Source of the DNA: an uncultured archaeon
Lineage (GTDB): Archaea; Iainarchaeota; Iainarchaeia; Iainarchaeales; CSSED10-239
Reading direction: 5' to 3'
DNA length: 13,590 nucleotides
Assembly: GCA_964468895.1 (NCBI GenBank)
Contig: CAYXWT010000019.1
Coordinates: 1-13,590 of the forward strand
Under the pieces are notes generated by a model that had not been told where the DNA came from, searched no databases, and worked only from the letters and a program-made list of their open reading frames with translations. Below are positions 1 through 10,714 of this stretch, in pieces (within the stretch, counting starts at the first letter, position 1; every line of letters begins with the position of its first letter). A program made the translations under genes and the position numbers.

Positions 1-84
1 TTCTTTGTACTATCTTTTGTTTTCTTTGTACTATCTTTTAATTTCTTTGTATTACCTTTTAATTTCTTTTTAAGCTTTTTAAGA
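1..84 (-). repeat. Imperfect 21-bp tandem repeat (about 4 units) within the TBP 3' end, encoding a Lys-rich heptad tail
   Basis: The units are 1-21 ttctttgtactatcttttgtt, 22-42 ttctttgtactatcttttaat, 43-63 ttctttgtattaccttttaat and 64-84 ttctttttaagctttttaaga (degenerate). On the coding strand they translate in frame to ...KKLKKKLKGNTKKLKDSTKKTKDSTK. The array is still open at position 1, so the total copy number is unknown. Confidence 0.85.
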
Positions 85-581
85 CCTTTAACAATATCTT
101 CTTCGTTTTTTGCACCAGCACATATTAATTTACCATTTTTAAAAAGTAACATAGTCAATTTAGGATCATAAATTCTAACTATTGCACCAGGAAATTGTTC
201 AGGTTCATATTCTATATTATCTAAGTTTATAGCAATATTAAATAAATCAATTTCTGTATTTAAACTTGATGTAGCTACAAGATTTACAATTTCATAAGAA
301 ATATTTCTTTTTATTTTAACATCTTTTTGAACTTCATTAATTATTTTCATAGCTTTTTTTATTGCGATTTTAATATCTTTTTCGTTAGAAGCACCAGAAA
401 CAATTATCTTACCATTTTTAAAAAGTAATAAAGAAACTTTTGGTTCACTTATTTTTAAAATTGCACCAGGGAATTGTTCAGGTTCATATTCTACTTCAGG
501 AATTGCTGTTGCTAAATTATATAAATCTAAGCCATCTCCAATTCTACTTGAAGCAACTAAATTAACTATTTTATAATCCAT
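1..581 (-). CDS. tbp: TATA-box-binding protein (TBP); 3' end runs off the window
   Basis: Absent from the supplied track because it is open at the window edge. The reverse complement from 581 reads ATG GAT TAT AAA ATA GTT AAT TTA GTT GCT TCA = MDYKIVNLVASSRIGDGLDLYNLATAIPEVEYEPEQFPGAILKISEPKVSLLLFKNGKIIVSGASNEKDI. A second repeat follows: YEIVNLVATSSLNTEIDLFNIAINLDNIEYEPEQFPGAIVRIYDPKLTMLLFKNGKLICAGAKNEEDI. Two ~93-codon direct repeats with the IVN-VA(S/T) and EYEPEQFPG signatures are diagnostic of TBP. A GAGGT Shine-Dalgarno-like motif (plus-strand acctc, 591..595) lies 9 nt upstream of the ATG. A TATATAAAAA element (627..636) lies about 46-55 nt upstream. Confidence 0.92.
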   Translation of the reverse strand, partial: MDYKIVNLVASSRIGDGLDLYNLATAIPEVEYEPEQFPGAILKISEPKVSLLLFKNGKIIVSGASNEKDIKIAIKKAMKIINEVQKDVKIKRNISYEIVNLVATSSLNTEIDLFNIAINLDNIEYEPEQFPGAIVRIYDPKLTMLLFKNGKLICAGAKNEEDIVKGLKKLKKKLKGNTKKLKDSTKKTKDSTK

Positions 582-1604: not shown

Positions 1605-2126
1605 ATGTTAAAAGAAGCAATTGTTTTAGATAAAACACAAAGGGAAATACAATTTAAACAAACAAACATCATACAATGTTTAGGTATTTCTAACTTTGCT
1701 TTATTAGAATTGTATAGTAATACATCAGTTAAAATTATGGATAAAATATCCACAGAAAATGAAATTGTAAAAAGAATTAATTATAAAAAACTTACAAATA
1801 CTGCTAAAAAAGAATTAGAAAGAGCTGTAGAAAATATAGTTTTAGAAAATGAAACTAGATTTGTAAATTTCTTTAATAATGCAAAACCTATTAGTATCAG
1901 AAGACATCAACTAGATCTTTTACCAATGGTTGGTAAAAAACACAAATTGATGCTATTAGATTACCTTAAAATAAAAGGTAAATTTAATAGTTTTGAAGAT
2001 ATTAGAAACATAGATATGATGCCTGATCCAGCACATATAATAGTAGGTAGAATTATAGACGAAATTGAAGGCGGGCCTGATATTAAGTATTATTTATTTA
2101 TTATGCCTCAATTTAAAAAATACTAA
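1605..2126 (+). CDS. DUF655-family protein (putative nucleic-acid-binding protein with helix-hairpin-helix motif)
   Basis: 173 aa. The segment FVNFFNNAKPISIRRHQLDLLPMVGKKHKLMLLDY...FNSFEDI matches the DUF655 signature (F-N-A-P-I-(S/T)-R-H-L-L-LP-GIGKK...F-SFEDI). Its position between rpoF and ksgA is the conserved archaeal context. Confidence 0.85.
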   Translation: MLKEAIVLDKTQREIQFKQTNIIQCLGISNFALLELYSNTSVKIMDKISTENEIVKRINYKKLTNTAKKELERAVENIVLENETRFVNFFNNAKPISIRRHQLDLLPMVGKKHKLMLLDYLKIKGKFNSFEDIRNIDMMPDPAHIIVGRIIDEIEGGPDIKYYLFIMPQFKKY

Positions 2127-2178
2127 AAATTTCTATTTTCTGTATTTATATTCAAAAAAAATAAAAGTGTTAATTATT

Positions 2179-2973
2179 ATGTTAAGTAGACTTTATTCTT
2201 TAATGTTAAGATATTCATTTAAACCAAATCCTAAATTTAATCAAAATTTTATAATTAATAAAAAAATTATTGATAGAGTTATAGAAATAACAGATATTAG
2301 CAAAGAAGATATAATTTTAGAAATAGGACCAGGGATTGGCTTTTTAACATCAGAATTACTAGATAAATCTAAAGAAGTAATTGCAGTTGAAAAAGACATA
2401 AATATGGTTAATATTCTTAAAGATATATTTAAAAACAAAGATCAATTAAATATAATAAATGAAGATTTTCTTAATACAAATTTAGATCAATTAAAATTTA
2501 ACAAAATTGTTGGATTTATACCTTATTCAATTTCTCAAAAAATAATTTATAAAATAAACAATATTTGTCAGTCTGTACTAATAGTGCAAAAAGAATTTGC
2601 TAACAAATTACTATCTCAAGAAGGATTTGAAAATTATAATGCAATATCAGTAATTTCTCAAACATATAATAATATTAAAGTACATAATAAAATTGGTAAA
2701 AGTTCTTTTTTTCCAGCACCAAAATGTGAATCTGTTATTATAGAATTAACTCCAAAATCATTTAAACTAGATGCTAGATATAACTTGTTTGTAAAAGAGA
2801 TATTTAGATATTCAAATAAAGATCTATCAAAAGCAATTAAATTATCTAATAAAATTTTAAAAATAGACTTAAAGTTTTTTGAAGAAAATATATCTGATAA
2901 TTTAAAAAGTAGAAAAGTAAAATTATTAAATGTAAAAGAAATAAAAGATATTTATTCTAAACTTTACAAATAA
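2179..2973 (+). CDS. ksgA: 16S rRNA (adenine1518/1519-N6)-dimethyltransferase KsgA/Dim1
   Basis: NQNFIINKKIIDRV (consensus GQNFL), SAM motif I LEIGPGIGFLTSELL, VAVEKD, and the catalytic (N/F)(L/I)PY-type motif GFIPYSIS. The track ORF starts at 2065, overlaps DUF655 by 62 nt and adds a non-conserved hydrophobic extension. The in-frame ATG at 2179 (MLSRLYSLMLRYSFKPNPKFNQNF) is preferred, and the ATG at 2203 is also possible. Confidence 0.9.
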   Translation: MLSRLYSLMLRYSFKPNPKFNQNFIINKKIIDRVIEITDISKEDIILEIGPGIGFLTSELLDKSKEVIAVEKDINMVNILKDIFKNKDQLNIINEDFLNTNLDQLKFNKIVGFIPYSISQKIIYKINNICQSVLIVQKEFANKLLSQEGFENYNAISVISQTYNNIKVHNKIGKSSFFPAPKCESVIIELTPKSFKLDARYNLFVKEIFRYSNKDLSKAIKLSNKILKIDLKFFEENISDNLKSRKVKLLNVKEIKDIYSKLYK

Positions 2974-5924: not shown

Positions 5925-6902
5925 CTATTTTTGAGGTTTAATAAATAACAATAATACAAAAATAATTAAAATACCAACTAGTAAATATTTAAAATTAAAT
6001 TTACCTTTATTAAAACTAAACAAAGCACTTATTTTTGATAAATTAGAGTCTACATTAGTTTCTGATTCTACAGATAAATTGAGATCTATATTTTTGCTTA
6101 TAGGAATAAATCTTAAAGTAATATCTTTTAATTTATTTTTTTCAAAACCATCTTGAGCATAACAAGAAATAACATATAAATCTTTAGTTAAAGTTTTATT
6201 ATTATCTACTGAAACTATTAAACTAGTAGTATTATAAGAAGAATCTACAATTTGATTTAAACTTAAGTTTTCATCAGTATCACAACTTAAAGAAAAGTAA
6301 TAATCATCAGAAGTAGATTTTAAAGTAATATCTATCACATCTTTATCGTTAACGCTATTTAATATAAAAAAGTCTCTAGAATAATTATAACCTACAAATT
6401 TAGGTTTTGAATGATCTTTAGTATTAGAAAAATATATTGGAGAATTATTATATTTAAGATTTAAATAAATTCTATCAGTATCTAACAAATTATCATATTC
6501 ATCATACAAATCAATTTGAAATTTAAGTTTAGTATTTTTATCAAAGTAATTATTTGTAGAAATATAAATATAAAAGTTATTTGAAAACGCATTTTCAAAA
6601 TAAATTATTGAATCTGATAAATCAAGATCAACATTATTATTTTTAGAACCAAAAACTTCATAAGACAATTCAATTCTAGGATTTTTATAAGTTTCAATAT
6701 CTTGTTTATTAAAATTAACAATAGAATTGAAACCTATACTTAAATCTGTATTTTTAGATAAATAAAAAGTATTACCAGCAGCATCAGAGTTATCTATTTG
6801 ATTTATTTCCAATAAATTGTTGTTTGCAAATATATTTAATGATATTAAAACTAGAAATAATAATGATAATAAATTAAATATAAATCTTTTTTTAAATAAC
6901 AT
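5925..6902 (-). CDS. Asn-rich secreted surface protein with N-terminal signal peptide and C-terminal TM anchor (no recognisable family)
   Basis: The track ORF begins at GTG 6911. The first ATG, at 6902, gives MLFKKRFIFNLLSLLFLVLISLNIFA-NNN, a canonical signal peptide. The C-terminus YLLVGILIIFVLLLFIKPQK is a TM helix plus a basic stop-transfer. The body is beta-rich and Asn/Asp/Ser/Tyr-rich, with at least seven N-x-S/T sequons and only two Cys. TAG stop. Confidence 0.7.
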   Translation of the reverse strand: MLFKKRFIFNLLSLLFLVLISLNIFANNNLLEINQIDNSDAAGNTFYLSKNTDLSIGFNSIVNFNKQDIETYKNPRIELSYEVFGSKNNNVDLDLSDSIIYFENAFSNNFYIYISTNNYFDKNTKLKFQIDLYDEYDNLLDTDRIYLNLKYNNSPIYFSNTKDHSKPKFVGYNYSRDFFILNSVNDKDVIDITLKSTSDDYYFSLSCDTDENLSLNQIVDSSYNTTSLIVSVDNNKTLTKDLYVISCYAQDGFEKNKLKDITLRFIPISKNIDLNLSVESETNVDSNLSKISALFSFNKGKFNFKYLLVGILIIFVLLLFIKPQK

Positions 6903-6959
6903 AGCTTTCACTATATAATTAAGGAGAGTTAAGTTATTTAAATAGATTTATTTTTTAAA

Positions 6960-7337: not shown

Positions 7338-7361
7338 ATCTAGACTCCTTATTTACAAAAA

Positions 7362-7448
7362 CACAGAGGATGGGATTTGAACCCACGGACAAGTTTCCCT
7401 GCCACTTAGTTTCGAACCAAGCACCTTAAACCACTCAGTCACCTCTGC
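7362..7448 (-). tRNA. tRNA-Ser (anticodon CGA), class II with long variable arm; CCA not encoded
   Basis: The reverse complement reads GCAGAGG-TG-ACTGAGTGGTTTAAGGT-G-CTTGG-TTCGAAA-CTAAG-TGGCAGGGAAACTTGTCC-GTGGG-TTCAAAT-CCCAT-CCTCTGT-G. It has a 7-bp acceptor stem (one G:U) and a D-loop with GG. The 5-bp anticodon stem carries the loop TT-CGA-AA (U33, purine 37). The variable arm is 18 nt with a CAGG/CTTG stem, and the T arm has the TTCAAAT loop. A T5 tract (7357-7361) follows directly. Confidence 0.9.
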
Positions 7449-7771
7449 AAAATAACATCATTAATAATACATAAAATGAATTTTAAAATTTGTGTAGCAC
7501 TATCTTCTTCGTTTATGTTTTTAATTATAATTTTTAAGGATGAGAATATAGTTACTTCTGAATCTTTATGTTTAATAGTTATAAAAAAAGGTATACTTTC
7601 TTTTTCAACAAATATTTTTTTAAGTTTAAATTTATTTAATAATTTTTCCAAGTCTATTTTTTTAGTAAATTTAGGGAAAAACTCAAAACCAGGAGTAGCT
7701 TTACAGGGATCTAAAATAAATTGATCTACAGTTATTTCTTTAAATTTAGCACCAAGCATATTTAACATCAT
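7439..7771 (-). CDS. Hypothetical 110-aa protein (small alpha/beta module); stop codon lies inside tRNA-Ser
   Basis: ATG-initiated ORF starting 20 nt downstream of the ATPase gene on the same strand. Its C-terminal half (FFITIKHKDSEVTIFSSLKIIIKNINEEDSATQILKFI) has a beta-beta-alpha pattern. It has no obvious Shine-Dalgarno, it is the only CDS in the window ending in TGA, and its last 10 nt overlap the tRNA 5' end. Coding status is therefore moderate. The antisense ORF 7476..7724 is judged a shadow. Confidence 0.5.
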   Translation of the reverse strand: MMLNMLGAKFKEITVDQFILDPCKATPGFEFFPKFTKKIDLEKLLNKFKLKKIFVEKESIPFFITIKHKDSEVTIFSSLKIIIKNINEEDSATQILKFILCIINDVILQR

Positions 7772-7791: not shown

Positions 7792-10533
7792 TTATATTAT
7801 TTGATTTACCACACCATCAACCAAAACTGGTCTTTCTTTAAATTTAGGATCTACTAACACTATTTTCCAAACTGGCCAATATATAGATTCTACACCTACA
7901 AACTCTAATTTACCCCATAATTTTTGTAAATTACCCTTAATATCAGATATATTGTTTTCAACTTCAAAAATACTACTAGTAGGCAATTCTTTCTTTCTTA
8001 AAGGTAAAATATTTAAAGAACCAATAATATTATGATTTGCTGAAAAAGGTACATCAAAATTACTAGATAATTTATAAATTTCAACATCGTGCTTTTTAGT
8101 AATGTTTACTAACAAATTTTGTTTAAAGAATTTAATTCTTTCAACAATTAATGTTTCATCTAAATCAATTTCTTGAGTTAAAGAATAGATTGTACTTTGT
8201 TTTTTTAAGAGATATAATAAATCTAAATCAGATTCTGAAAACAAAGGTAATTTTGTTAAGCCTTTAGATGCTCTAAAATTATTATTTACAAAATGTAATA
8301 GTTCACCAGTAATTGAATCTGCATAACAAACATTTCTTTTAAAATTATCATTATTATCATAAAGATTAAAATAAATTTTATATACAAGTCTATGATATAA
8401 CGAACTTTCATTAACAGTTTCTTTATTTTTAAAAAATAAATAAGATTTAGGAATTGTAGTTTTAGCTTTTTTTTCAGCAAGCTCTTTACTTATTCTTAAT
8501 GGAAAACATTCACAAATTTTATTATTTTCTTTGTCTACTTCTTCTAATTCTTCAGCAATTTCTAAAGCATCTATATCTTTAAGTTTAACTTTTTCTTCAA
8601 CATTATCATCGTTAGGAACAGTATCAAAAACATTATCATCTTCATCTACAACTTCATGATTAGAAGGATTTTCTAGTTTATCAATTTCTTTTTTAATTTC
8701 TTCAACATTATCAATATTAGATATATTTTCTTCTCTAATAAACAACTCTTTATTTTTTAAAATAATATTTAGTTCATTTAATTTTTTAAGAACTTTTTTC
8801 CAAGAAACTTTACTACGATATTTAATATTTATAATATCAAGAATATCCTGAGCATAATTTTCTTTAATTGTTCTTGTTTTTTTAATTTTATTAAATATTA
8901 GATTACTAGCCCTTTCTATCACTTCTTCATCACTTATGTCTTCTACTTGTCTAATAGTTTCTGCATCTCTACCTTCATGTTGAGAAGCACGAGGCTTAAT
9001 TTTTAAAATAAAAGCTCTACTACTTTCTTCTCTTCTATCACCTATAAGTGCAACACCTACAGGAAGTGTTTTAATAAAATTAGGCTTTTTATATTCTTCA
9101 GGAATTATTGCAGGCATTCTTTTATGAATTGCTTTAATATCATCATTAAAAACTAATTTATGACTTATAAAAATATCTACTTGACTTAAAACTTTACTAT
9201 TTATTGCAGAAGGTTGTTGAGTTGCAAATACTAATGAACAGCCTGGTCTTCTACCTTGTTTAACATATTCAACAACAGCTACAGTTGCAGGAGTTTGTGT
9301 ATTTCCTGAAGGTATTAAGGTGTGAGCTTCATCAATATATAACCAAGTAGGTGGAATTTCTATTTCTAATAATAAATCTGGATTTTCTTCTTTAGTTTCA
9401 AATTTTTTAATAGCATCTTGTCTAGTCACAAGCTTTCTAGCAGAAAGTATTCTTCTAGCTAATATTCCTATAACTAAAGCTGTAATATTATCATCTAAAA
9501 AACTAGTATCTAAAATTGTTAATTGACCTTCTCTAGAAAGTTTAGTTAAAGGAGTTCCATGGTCACTAAAGACACCCCAAGACTTTGCAGCTTCGAACCT
9601 AGATACTAATGCTCTAATAGAATCTGGTTTATAACCTTTTTGTGAAGATTTAAATTCAGTATTATTCTGTAAACAATAAATAATATCACCTAAAGTAAAT
9701 TGACTACCTTTTGGTAATATTTCTTTAAGTTCGCTATCAGATTTAGGATCTCCAGCTATATAACCATTTTTAACAAAACTTAAAGTTTTTTCTAAAAGAA
9801 GACCTGTTGGATTAAATCTATCTATTGCAAAAGTTAAACACCAATCTTCTGATTCTAACATAGAAGGAAATAAAGAAAATGTCTCATCATAAGTATCTTT
9901 AGATATTTTATCTACCATACCATCTGGTACAAATACTTTTAAATTATCTAAACCTTTTGGTTTTAAATTCCATTTTTCTAAAATTTCAAGTTCTTTTTTT
10001 TCTTGATTTGGAAATCTCATTGACCAGAAAACACCAACTGGATCAACAACGATTTGGCCTATAAAAGGATTAGTAACTGCAAGTTCTTCAGCAATAACCC
10101 CTAAACCATAACTTTTACCAGATCCACGTGATCCATCTATAAAAACAATATGTGGGTTTAGACCATCCAACCTTATATTTTTATCTTTTAAATCATCTTC
10201 ATAAACCTTACCTAAAAAAGCAGAAGATTTAGAACCATATTGTTTCAAAATGGATTTTTTTCTACCAATATATACAACAGATTTATCTTCTAAATCTTCT
10301 AATAATTTTAATTTAGGTTTAATTGTAGTATCTATTTCTTTATTATCATTATTTTTAACGATATGATCTGGTACATATTCTTTAGAACCTAAAGGTACAT
10401 TAGAATTATCTAAATCTTTAGAGTTCTTTGAATGTTCTGAACTTTCTAAAACTTTATTTTTAGAATCATCTTTAGATTCCATTTCTTCAAAAAAATCTGA
10501 TTTTTCAGAATTATGTTCTTTAATCACACTCAT
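7792..10533 (-). CDS. HerA/FtsK-superfamily P-loop ATPase (DUF87-like core) fused to a disordered N-terminus, an acidic linker and a C-terminal winged-helix-containing module
   Basis: Walker A is FIDGSRGSGKSYGLG (GSRGSGKS = 10111..10134). Walker B is WLYIDEAHTLIP (LYIDEAH = 9322..9342). The HerA-type segment GRRPGCSLVFATQQPSAINSKVLSQVDIFISHKLVFNDDIKAI is present, as is the helical insert ALVIGILARRILSARKL. The track ORF starts at TTG 10656 and adds 41 junk-like residues. The first ATG, 10533 (MSVIKEHNSEK), is preferred, with a TTTTATATAT element about 45 nt upstream. This gives 913 aa. Confidence 0.85.
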   Translation of the reverse strand: MSVIKEHNSEKSDFFEEMESKDDSKNKVLESSEHSKNSKDLDNSNVPLGSKEYVPDHIVKNNDNKEIDTTIKPKLKLLEDLEDKSVVYIGRKKSILKQYGSKSSAFLGKVYEDDLKDKNIRLDGLNPHIVFIDGSRGSGKSYGLGVIAEELAVTNPFIGQIVVDPVGVFWSMRFPNQEKKELEILEKWNLKPKGLDNLKVFVPDGMVDKISKDTYDETFSLFPSMLESEDWCLTFAIDRFNPTGLLLEKTLSFVKNGYIAGDPKSDSELKEILPKGSQFTLGDIIYCLQNNTEFKSSQKGYKPDSIRALVSRFEAAKSWGVFSDHGTPLTKLSREGQLTILDTSFLDDNITALVIGILARRILSARKLVTRQDAIKKFETKEENPDLLLEIEIPPTWLYIDEAHTLIPSGNTQTPATVAVVEYVKQGRRPGCSLVFATQQPSAINSKVLSQVDIFISHKLVFNDDIKAIHKRMPAIIPEEYKKPNFIKTLPVGVALIGDRREESSRAFILKIKPRASQHEGRDAETIRQVEDISDEEVIERASNLIFNKIKKTRTIKENYAQDILDIINIKYRSKVSWKKVLKKLNELNIILKNKELFIREENISNIDNVEEIKKEIDKLENPSNHEVVDEDDNVFDTVPNDDNVEEKVKLKDIDALEIAEELEEVDKENNKICECFPLRISKELAEKKAKTTIPKSYLFFKNKETVNESSLYHRLVYKIYFNLYDNNDNFKRNVCYADSITGELLHFVNNNFRASKGLTKLPLFSESDLDLLYLLKKQSTIYSLTQEIDLDETLIVERIKFFKQNLLVNITKKHDVEIYKLSSNFDVPFSANHNIIGSLNILPLRKKELPTSSIFEVENNISDIKGNLQKLWGKLEFVGVESIYWPVWKIVLVDPKFKERPVLVDGVVNQII

Positions 10534-10714
10534 AATAATCTTCTCAAAATTATTTCTACAAAAATATATTTTATTAATATAATATATAAAAGAAATAGTA
10601 TTTAAATAGTTAATTGTTAATCTATCTAGAATATATCTCAGAATGTACAAAAACAATTAAACTATATATGAAAAACATAAGATACAAGCTTTAAACTCGC
10701 ATAGTCTTAAGACT

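Follow-up and report, generated by a model that had tools for sequence, protein, structure and literature searches.

Introduction

Canonical archaeal HerA (MlaA), known structurally from S. solfataricus (4d2i) and T. kodakarensis (9x1m), combines a RecA-like P-loop core that includes a helical insertion with an N-terminal HAS β-barrel, and in HerA-NurA structures this barrel provides the docking face for NurA. Other ATPases of this type serve in anti-phage defence (Sir2-HerA, DUF4297-HerA, TdpA, and mad8 of MADS), and FtsK and SpoIIIE, which belong to the same superfamily, are laid out in the order localisation element, long low-complexity linker, motor and C-terminal winged helix. We know of no recognised FtsK in the archaea that divide with FtsZ; Iyer and colleagues reportedly proposed in 2004 that HerA-like pumps fill the role of FtsK in archaea, a question that is said never to have been settled. 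Here we describe a HerA-like ATPase gene from an uncultured archaeon of the Iainarchaeota, located on a stretch of DNA of 13,590 nucleotides (contig CAYXWT010000019.1 of assembly GCA_964468895.1) that we refer to in its full length as the window. Its product is a member of a widespread, uncharacterised archaeal HerA-clade family, for which we favor, with confidence slightly better than even, a housekeeping role as a ring ATPase that acts on DNA.

The ATPase Gene and Its Overall Layout

7792..10533 (-), whole ATPase gene, 913 aa plus stop (translation, near-identical public protein P0001, full-length homologues)

The open reading frame at positions 7792-10533 of the minus strand encodes 913 residues with zero internal stops, and the public protein P0001 has the same length and differs from it at a single position (V86I). 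We assigned the start codon to the ATG at position 10533 because a conserved motif common to the homologues (residues 13-20) lies just downstream of it, so that sequence conservation supports this choice. The TTG at position 10656 was rejected as a start: the 41 residues that it would add resemble AT-rich non-coding spacer DNA (the G+C content of the window is ~22%), and public gene calls use the ATG at 10533. No transmembrane segment was predicted in the 913-aa protein, the maximum Kyte-Doolittle hydropathy over 19 residues being 1.37.

We built a full-length AlphaFold2 model on 111 homologues [mean predicted local distance difference test score (pLDDT) 83.5] and a second model of residues 530-913 (mean pLDDT 88.9). 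The five-part layout that a first-pass annotation had read from the sequence was recovered in these models, namely an N-terminal tail (residues 1-65), the ATPase core, a winged-helix-like domain termed WH1 (535-600), a linker (601-669) and a C-terminal module (670-913).

A HerA-Clade Motor Core without a HAS Barrel

8971..10278 (-), HerA-like P-loop ATPase core, residues 86-521 (Pfam, Foldseek, PADLOC mad8, ~110 invariant columns)
10111..10134 (-), Walker A GSRGSGKS, residues 134-141 (motif position; invariant G134, R136, G137, G139, K140, S141)
9322..9345 (-), Walker B WLYIDEAH, residues 397-404 (invariant W397, D401, E402, A403, H404)
9208..9225 (-), ATQQPS, residues 437-442, equivalent of the FtsK/HerA-type 'TQRPS' (invariant A437, T438, Q439, Q440, P441)

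The AlphaFold2 model places the ATPase core at residues ~71-521 with pLDDT values above 90. When the model was compared with the PDB by Foldseek, the 50 best matches were all HerA proteins (4e-18 to 5e-13, ~16% identity, probability 1.00), among them those of T. kodakarensis, S. solfataricus and Deinococcus and the anti-phage Sir2-HerA and DUF4297-HerA complexes. The canonical archaeal HerA structures were the best structural matches (E 4e-18 to 1e-15) and share with the window ATPase the RecA-like P-loop core, including its helical insertion, as well as the Walker A, Walker B and TQxPS motifs. Pfam recognised DUF87 (PF01935) on the core at 1.8e-9 (38.4 bits; gathering cut-off 23.2) and HerA_C at 6.8e-5 (22.1 bits; cut-off 22). 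The three motifs that the first-pass annotation had listed, i.e., Walker A (134-141), the DEAH of Walker B (401-404) and ATQQPS (437-442), are invariant in the alignment of 111 relatives, and the last of them aligns with the ASQRPS motif of the HerA structure 8xau. A cluster of basic residues in the core (R360, R361, R366, K367 and R371) is likewise invariant.

An N-terminal HAS β-barrel, which had already been thought unlikely from the shortness of the sequence in front of Walker A, is not present in the window ATPase: the high-confidence part of the model (pLDDT >90) contains merely three short strands (86-89, 104-110, 119-123) and one helix (93-99) before the P-loop strand, and residues 1-65 are disordered. 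Collectively, these data establish the core as a HerA-clade ATPase of the FtsK/HerA superfamily (DUF87) that lacks the HAS barrel. The departure from canonical HerA noted in the first-pass annotation is thus real; the protein is ~16% identical to its canonical counterparts and carries ~470 extra residues, with ~390 residues added after the core by WH1, the acidic linker and the C-terminal module.

Curated models for the described HerA groups missed the protein by a wide margin. The canonical model HerA_Thermprot (NF040937) of NCBIfam scored 23.6 bits against a cut-off of 800, and the two HerA_antiphage models (NF042943/4) gave 34.5 bits (cut-off 800) and 33.4 bits (cut-off 850). The PADLOC model for mad8, by contrast, matched the core end to end (residues 105-526) at 5.5e-19, and it matched the relatives at 1e-21 to 1e-25. 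The mad8 model is short (314 positions; the HerA models comprise 532-686) and barrel-less, and this match is one of remote similarity only. Neither FtsK_SpoIIIE nor Ftsk_gamma of Pfam was found in the window ATPase at E-values up to 1, and there was no FtsK among the top 50 Foldseek matches; the core is nearer to HerA than to FtsK.

A C-Terminal Module of Two PepSY-Like Domains and a Winged Helix

8263..8526 (-), first PepSY-like domain, residues 670-757 (strand, helix, four strands; motif DS-x-TGE; pLDDT 91-98)
8062..8262 (-), ArsR/MarR/TrmB-type winged helix-turn-helix domain (wHTH) termed WH2, residues 758-824 (profile, Foldseek, Pfam TrmB in relatives)
7795..8019 (-), second PepSY-like domain, residues 839-913 (Pfam PepSY in relatives; pLDDT 92-98)

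Residues 670-913 form a compact ordered module (pLDDT 94-98). The first-pass annotation had delimited this ~240-aa region correctly and had found no motif to assign to it; assignment became possible through its relatives. While the C-terminal module of the window protein itself has no Pfam match at E-values up to 0.1, the PepSY model (PF03413) matched six of 18 relatives (best E 6.4e-8), always via the C-terminal copy, and the TrmB model matched the WH2 region in 11 of the 18. The first and second PepSY-like copies align with each other by hhalign at 94% probability (E 1.3e-7), and the module therefore has the order PepSY-like, ArsR/MarR-type wHTH, PepSY-like, the two flanking copies representing an internal duplication. 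It is only through the second copy that the first one is tied to PepSY, and no PepSY structure was present among the 50 best Foldseek matches of the module. For the central winged helix, a profile of the module matched HlyU in the PDB at 5.3e-5, and also CzrA, AdcR and MecI, over the central 60 residues; Foldseek superimposed WH2 on HlyU and SmtB with an rmsd of 1-2.6 Å over ~65 residues (E ~5e-3).

As a unit, the module found no match in the PDB or in BFVD, where winged-helix matches only were obtained, and there is no curated Pfam or NCBIfam model for it. The combination PepSY-like, wHTH, PepSY-like is a new one without counterpart among solved structures. With known PepSY proteins (PF03413; YpeB, the propeptides of M4 proteases) the window domains share the topology of a helix and an antiparallel sheet and the 'D-x-x-T-G' turn; they differ from them in being cytoplasmic, duplicated, positioned on either side of a winged helix and fused to an ATPase. 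The wider family keeps G743, E744 (these two in 92-98% of its members), G758, P887, D906 and G910 of the module, which are structural residues only, and this argues for a binding module rather than an enzyme. A catalytic site was considered for E744, H747 and S756, which are invariant in the 111 relatives, and was rejected because H747 and S756 are not kept family-wide.

A Widespread Archaeal Family with a Constant Core and Tail Module

A first database search recovered more than 720 relatives; the best 120 of them have 797-1462 aa, mostly cover 85-100% of the query, and come from Diapherotrites/Iainarchaeota, Micrarchaeota and unclassified archaea. Among the species-representative genomes of GTDB, 271 relatives were found (from 274 matching stretches), corresponding to approximately one copy per genome. 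The hits extend to complete genomes (Forterrea, AR10 and an Iainarchaeum), and even very small genomes keep the gene. A search seeded from the Hadarchaeales extended the family to Hadarchaeota, MSBL1, Theionarchaea, Methanofastidiosa, a Methanomicrobia metagenome-assembled genome (MAG) and Hodarchaeaceae, with full-length members of 720-870 aa. Three loci (L030, L040 and L071) carry the family gene on contigs filed as Falkowbacteria, Chloroflexi and Peregrinibacteria MAGs, most likely as binning contaminants.

The C-terminal module and the WH1 region are present in all 111 aligned relatives, and a Methanofastidiosa protein can be aligned to residues 78-906 of the window protein (34% identity, E 9e-156), so that these extensions are conserved in close and in distant homologues alike. 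A word-indexed search with the profile of the module alone returned only five fragments and was uninformative; we therefore used an exhaustive search of representatives, which gave 413 clusters, and in nine of ten scanned clusters the module lies C-terminal to a DUF87 ATPase. Variation affects the middle of the protein. In P0170 (667 aa) the middle cassette of WH1 and linker is missing and the core is 49% identical; in P0181, P0188 and P0190 (~1200-1300 aa; locus L089 2329-6249) DUF835 stands in place of WH1 and the acidic linker, the middle part of P0181 comprising DUF835 and SAP, another DNA-binding motif; the Nanoarchaeia variant P0172 has a core of a shorter, divergent type. Core and C-terminal module are hence the constant parts of a family-wide fusion, and the middle cassette is variable.

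The first-pass annotation had called this architecture atypical. It is not rare: a large family of archaeal proteins, annotated only as 'DUF87', 'ATP-binding', 'HerA-like' or 'predicted transcriptional regulator', is built in this way as a rule; the layout is thus common, but it has no assigned function. In the literature on HerA, DUF87 or PepSY in combination with DPANN, on FtsK in Diapherotrites and on archaeal dark matter we found no description of the family, and arCOG00280 ('HerA-like helicase') is mentioned there only as virus-associated.

At least four relatives (P0117, P0185, P0141, P0400), and probably also P0151 and P0166, carry an intein, in each case inserted at the identical position between K140 and S141 within the P-loop (GSGK|S). 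These proteins are annotated as Diapherotrites and Micrarchaeota, and the inteins are of the LAGLIDADG type where a Pfam run or the source names the type. Inteins favor indispensable genes of DNA metabolism.

Variable Segments: N-Terminal Tail, WH1, and Acidic Linker

10339..10533 (-), disordered acidic low-complexity N-terminal tail, residues 1-65 (pLDDT <50)
10474..10497 (-), short linear motif DFFEEMES, residues 13-20, candidate partner-docking peptide (conservation)
10294..10323 (-), strand motif IKPKLKLLED, residues 71-80, leading into the core (conserved I-x-P-x-L-x-[FL]-L-x-D)
8734..8931 (-), winged-helix-like domain WH1, residues 535-600 (predicted topology only)
8527..8733 (-), disordered acidic linker, residues 601-669 (pLDDT 30-48)

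Residues 1-85 consist to 65% of S, K, D, E and N, in agreement with the low-complexity region described previously, and residues 1-65 have pLDDT values below 50. At residues 71-80 the pLDDT climbs above 90; L75 and L78 of this strand motif are at least 90% conserved, and the motif is also found at the N-terminus of the non-DPANN members. Across the 111 relatives of the Iainarchaeota-type set the tail varies from 32 to 278 aa and is net negative in 93%. Embedded in this otherwise unconserved segment is a short motif with the consensus D-x-F-[DE]-[DEK]-[VLIM]-[FE]-G, whose D13 is at least 90% conserved. It is present in 69 of 112 relatives and confined to the ATPase family among ~1000 neighboring open reading frames. 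The acidic tail with its motif occurs almost only in Iainarchaeota-type members and is absent from the non-DPANN members examined (Methanofastidiosa, Theionarchaea, Hadarchaeota, MSBL1), which begin directly with the strand motif. The DUF835-containing variant P0181 begins with a similar acidic/aromatic peptide, DLWDEL.

The basic helical segment for which a first winged helix had been suggested indeed adopts a winged-helix-like topology in the model, with the order helix, strand, helix, helix, β-hairpin (helices 535-553, 558-572 and 578-587; hairpin 590-599; pLDDT 82-93), and N569 and Y572 are conserved. No sequence method backs this reading: the family profile of WH1 gave nothing significant against the PDB, a Pfam scan of 17 members returned only weak MCM-WH hints (0.012-0.14), and hhalign aligned WH1 with WH2 at a probability of 13%. 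We therefore designate residues 535-600 as winged-helix-like by predicted topology only. With a net charge of +10 in the window protein against a family median of 0, the basic character of the segment is not a family trait. The strongly acidic linker that follows (residues 601-671: 38% D+E, net charge -20, disordered) ranges from 21 to 78 aa in the Iainarchaeota-type set and is net negative in 97%, its sequence being unconserved. In tail and linker alike, sequence and length are not conserved, and what persists is the acidity and, in the tail, the short motif; the two segments are neither plain filler nor conserved domains.

Genomic Context and a TBP-Domain-Like Gene

7439..7771 (-), TBP-domain-like gene, 110 aa, probable operon partner (starts 20 nt after the ATPase stop)

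The genomes nearest to the window belong to the Iainarchaeota/Diapherotrites, Candidatus Forterrea included, and the window itself contains the housekeeping genes for L21e, an Rpo4-like subunit, DUF655, KsgA, an AMP/thymidine-phosphorylase-type enzyme, UppP, TBP and a GDPD esterase. To sample the neighborhood of the ATPase more widely, we inspected 14 loci with gene tables and the recurrent neighbor clusters of 86 loci. The neighbors are housekeeping genes that vary between lineages, with a synteny that is stable within a clade. Genes for NurA, Mre11 or Rad50 were found neither in the window nor in the 14 loci nor among the recurrent clusters. No linked nuclease, effector (Sir2, DUF4297, methyltransferase), secretion or capsid gene was recurrent in the loci examined; integrase neighbors were absent from the window and from the fetched loci examined, and no fetched locus contained an FtsZ gene. 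Other conserved neighbor clusters were rejected as artefacts of antisense or low-complexity reading frames or as plain synteny (PGM/GlmU/GlmS).

The only recurrent same-strand neighbor of the ATPase is a gene for a TBP-domain-like protein of ~100-110 aa, which lies directly downstream in 28 of the 86 loci, with a start at -109 to +56 nt relative to the stop of the ATPase. The 110-aa protein of the window matched the Pfam TBP model at 1.1e-3, below the cut-off; a family HMM of the small protein matched the true TBP of the window at 3.7e-6, and hhalign aligned it to TBP at 62% probability. Its invariant residues are C23, E30, F31, D40, P61, F62, K67, S77, K80, A92 and N104. These comparisons suggest, at weak to moderate strength, a likeness to a single TBP domain (a putative 'half-TBP'). 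Monopartite TBP-domain proteins occur in some Euryarchaeota (PMC3597702). The two-repeat TBP lies near the left edge of the window (3-581, minus strand; Pfam TBP 3.9e-52), ~7 kb from its half-TBP paralogue. The half-TBP reading frame shares its final 11 nt with a gene for tRNA-Ser (anticodon CGA; 7361-7449, minus strand), so that ATPase, small gene and tRNA follow one another on the minus strand. In a Methanofastidiosa locus (L092 8430-9947), a 505-aa DUF8179 gene follows the ATPase after 2 nt on the same strand and may represent a lineage-specific partner.

No member of the family was present among 50,697 phage records, and IMG/VR contained a single partial match of 38 residues. No full-length copy was found on plasmids, where the matches cover at most 49% of the protein, with 22-31% identity among the matches listed. 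The best of these is a stand-alone core of 389 aa (L095 5947-7116) on plasmid NZ_CP098519.1 of Haloplanus sp. HW8-1 (31% identity, 4e-45).

A Housekeeping ATPase Acting on DNA?

The role of the family appears to be one in chromosomal housekeeping rather than in defence or in mobile elements. We draw this from the occurrence of approximately one copy per genome, the housekeeping neighbors, the near-absence from IMG/VR and phage records, the inteins in the P-loop and the missing nuclease or effector neighbor. By homology to other HerA and FtsK ATPases, the core would assemble into a ring and would spend ATP on translocating along double-stranded DNA or on remodelling it. The winged helix domain or domains, together with the flanking PepSY-like domains, may hold or select DNA or a DNA-bound partner, and the Iainarchaeota lineage would have added two acidic disordered segments to this arrangement, one in front of the motor and one behind it, ahead of the tail module. 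Through the short N-terminal peptide the motor probably docks to a partner protein. What we infer is thus that the protein forms rings, acts on double-stranded DNA, selects DNA or a partner by its tail module, docks through the N-terminal motif and cooperates with the TBP-domain-like protein. The earlier suggestion that the surplus residues serve in substrate recognition or in the recruitment of partners stays plausible in this light, since it agrees with a winged helix of the DNA-binding type and with the conservation of the N-terminal motif.

Several observations weigh against this reading. Ring formation and translocation are deduced from structural homology at ~16% identity only, and FtsK/HerA-fold ATPases can move proteins as well, as those of the EssC type do. 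PepSY is classically an extracytoplasmic protein-binding module, and by analogy the C-terminal module could bind protein instead of DNA; WH1, for its part, finds no significant match in Pfam, in PDB profiles or by hhalign. The core scores better with models of defence ATPases (mad8, anti-phage HerA; 1e-18 to 1e-25) than with canonical HerA, and the stand-alone core of Haloplanus sits in a BREX-like island with a BREX ATP-binding protein, a PglZ-like protein, a PD-(D/E)XK nuclease and a helicase, a defence-island context that differs from that of the fused ATPase family.

Within a housekeeping role, segregation, repair and the remodelling of chromatin or transcription are the candidate processes, which carry similar weight and of which each, taken singly, has a rather low probability. 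For segregation, one may envisage a functional analogue of FtsK/SpoIIIE in FtsZ-dividing archaea, in which the N-terminal peptide would tether the motor to the divisome by way of a long, flexible linker, in place of a membrane domain, the winged helix would correspond to the gamma domain, and the motor would clear or segregate chromosomal DNA. We regard this proposal as unlikely. It gains from the parallel order of the parts (tether, long variable linker, HerA/FtsK-superfamily motor, wHTH) and from the retention of the gene in very small genomes. In one relative (L004), SepF and Orc1/Cdc6 are encoded within 5 kb upstream, and the motif, in the form D-[LI]-F-[DE]-[DE]-V-F-G, loosely resembles the FtsZ tail of M. 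smithii, NEDQLDDFIDGIF, which binds SepF (PMC8178401). Proximity to SepF is, however, confined to this single locus, the spacing of the Phe residues is unlike in motif and FtsZ tail, and we treat the likeness of the two peptides as a loose sequence resemblance only. Since tail and motif are missing in the Methanofastidiosa, Theionarchaea, Hadarchaeota and MSBL1 members, tethering cannot be the general mode of the family. The window ATPase differs from FtsK and SpoIIIE further in that it has no membrane domain and no match to the Pfam FtsK_SpoIIIE and Ftsk_gamma models, and in that its winged helix, of ArsR/MarR-like type, has a PepSY-like domain on either side; it resembles FtsK and SpoIIIE in layout only and does not belong to them. 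In its most extended form the proposal would make the family the archaeal counterpart of FtsK, i.e., a HerA-derived chromosome translocase that would read DNA through its winged-helix tail, would be tethered to the FtsZ/SepF ring in Iainarchaeota and some other DPANN, through an FtsZ-tail-like N-terminal peptide at the end of a long acidic stretch, and would use the half-TBP as a DNA-bending accessory; this we consider decidedly unlikely.

For repair, the ATPase would replace canonical HerA in the resection of double-strand-break ends or in recombination, working with nucleases that are encoded elsewhere in the genome. The nearest solved folds come from HerA-NurA complexes (9x1m, 4e-18; 4d2i), the distribution is that of a housekeeping gene, and the inteins are in keeping with a function in DNA metabolism. 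On the other hand, no NurA, Mre11 or Rad50 gene lies near the ATPase in ~90 loci, the barrel that serves NurA as its docking face is absent, and the score of 23.6 bits with HerA_Thermprot falls far short of the cut-off of 800. This possibility is therefore doubtful in our view.

For transcription and chromatin, the protein might regulate or remodel protein-DNA complexes at the expense of ATP; WH2 would target promoters, and the motor would load, remove or chaperone the TBP-domain-like protein, loosely analogous to the action of Mot1 on TBP. The position of the small gene directly behind the ATPase in a third of the loci (28 of 86), in several subclades, speaks for it, as do the ArsR/MarR/TrmB regulator type of WH2 and the name 'predicted transcriptional regulator' that JGI annotators gave to relatives. 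It is nevertheless improbable: the TBP assignment is weak (Pfam below cut-off, hhalign 62%), the small gene is not adjacent in two thirds of the loci or in the non-DPANN lineages, and no transcription factor is known to us among HerA-clade ATPases.

An ATPase of an anti-virus defence system, comparable to Sir2-HerA, DUF4297-HerA or mad8 of MADS, is very unlikely. The best sequence-model matches are indeed those to defence ATPases (mad8 at 5.5e-19 and several HerA defence models), anti-phage HerAs are the nearest PDB sequences, and the Haloplanus plasmid provides a homologue in a BREX-like island. These matches are remote-homology scores, however, with the NCBIfam anti-phage HerA models reaching 33-35 bits against cut-offs of 800-850, and the Haloplanus homologue is a core of 389 aa only, the C-terminal module not being seen in defence HerAs. 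In the loci examined, no effector gene (Sir2, nuclease, methylase) is linked to the ATPase, which stands in a housekeeping context with stable synteny within a clade and is nearly single-copy across the 271 species-representative genomes. End-to-end conservation from Iainarchaeota to Methanofastidiosa, together with the relatives in other archaeal lineages, is consistent with long-term vertical retention and speaks against island-borne spread.

An ATPase of a mobile element, either a conjugative coupling protein (VirD4/TraG/VirB4-like) or a viral genome-packaging ATPase, is suggested by weak Pfam and PHROG matches to Zot, TrwB, a TraG P-loop and a terminase family, but has next to no probability given the lack of a transmembrane segment or membrane anchor, the absence of T4SS, Ced/Ted, secretion, capsid and integrase neighbors from the window and the fetched loci, and the phage, IMG/VR and plasmid searches described above.

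A housekeeping ATPase acting on DNA, the reading that we prefer, would make the family a concrete candidate for one of the core DNA transactions of archaea that are still unassigned. Its motor is of the HerA clade, lacks the NurA-docking barrel, has a DNA-binding-type tail of its own and has repeatedly taken up inteins in its P-loop; genomes that rank among the smallest of archaea, and several uncultured lineages of euryarchaea, keep it at approximately one copy. If the protein were merely another accessory ATPase, the present analysis would still provide a name and a domain map for several hundred 'DUF87 / ATP-binding' annotations.

Other Genes in the Window

Two further genes of the window deserve a remark. 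The reading frame for KsgA (RrnaAD; 2065-2973, plus strand) overlaps the DUF655 gene by 62 nt if its listed TTG start is used; its Pfam match begins at residue 53, and the true start is probably located further downstream. The gene at 5925-6911 (minus strand) encodes a protein of 328 aa that has no Pfam match and is predicted to carry a signal sequence and a C-terminal anchor. In 13 related loci it likewise lies downstream of the ATPase, as a result of synteny in the Forterrea-like clade.

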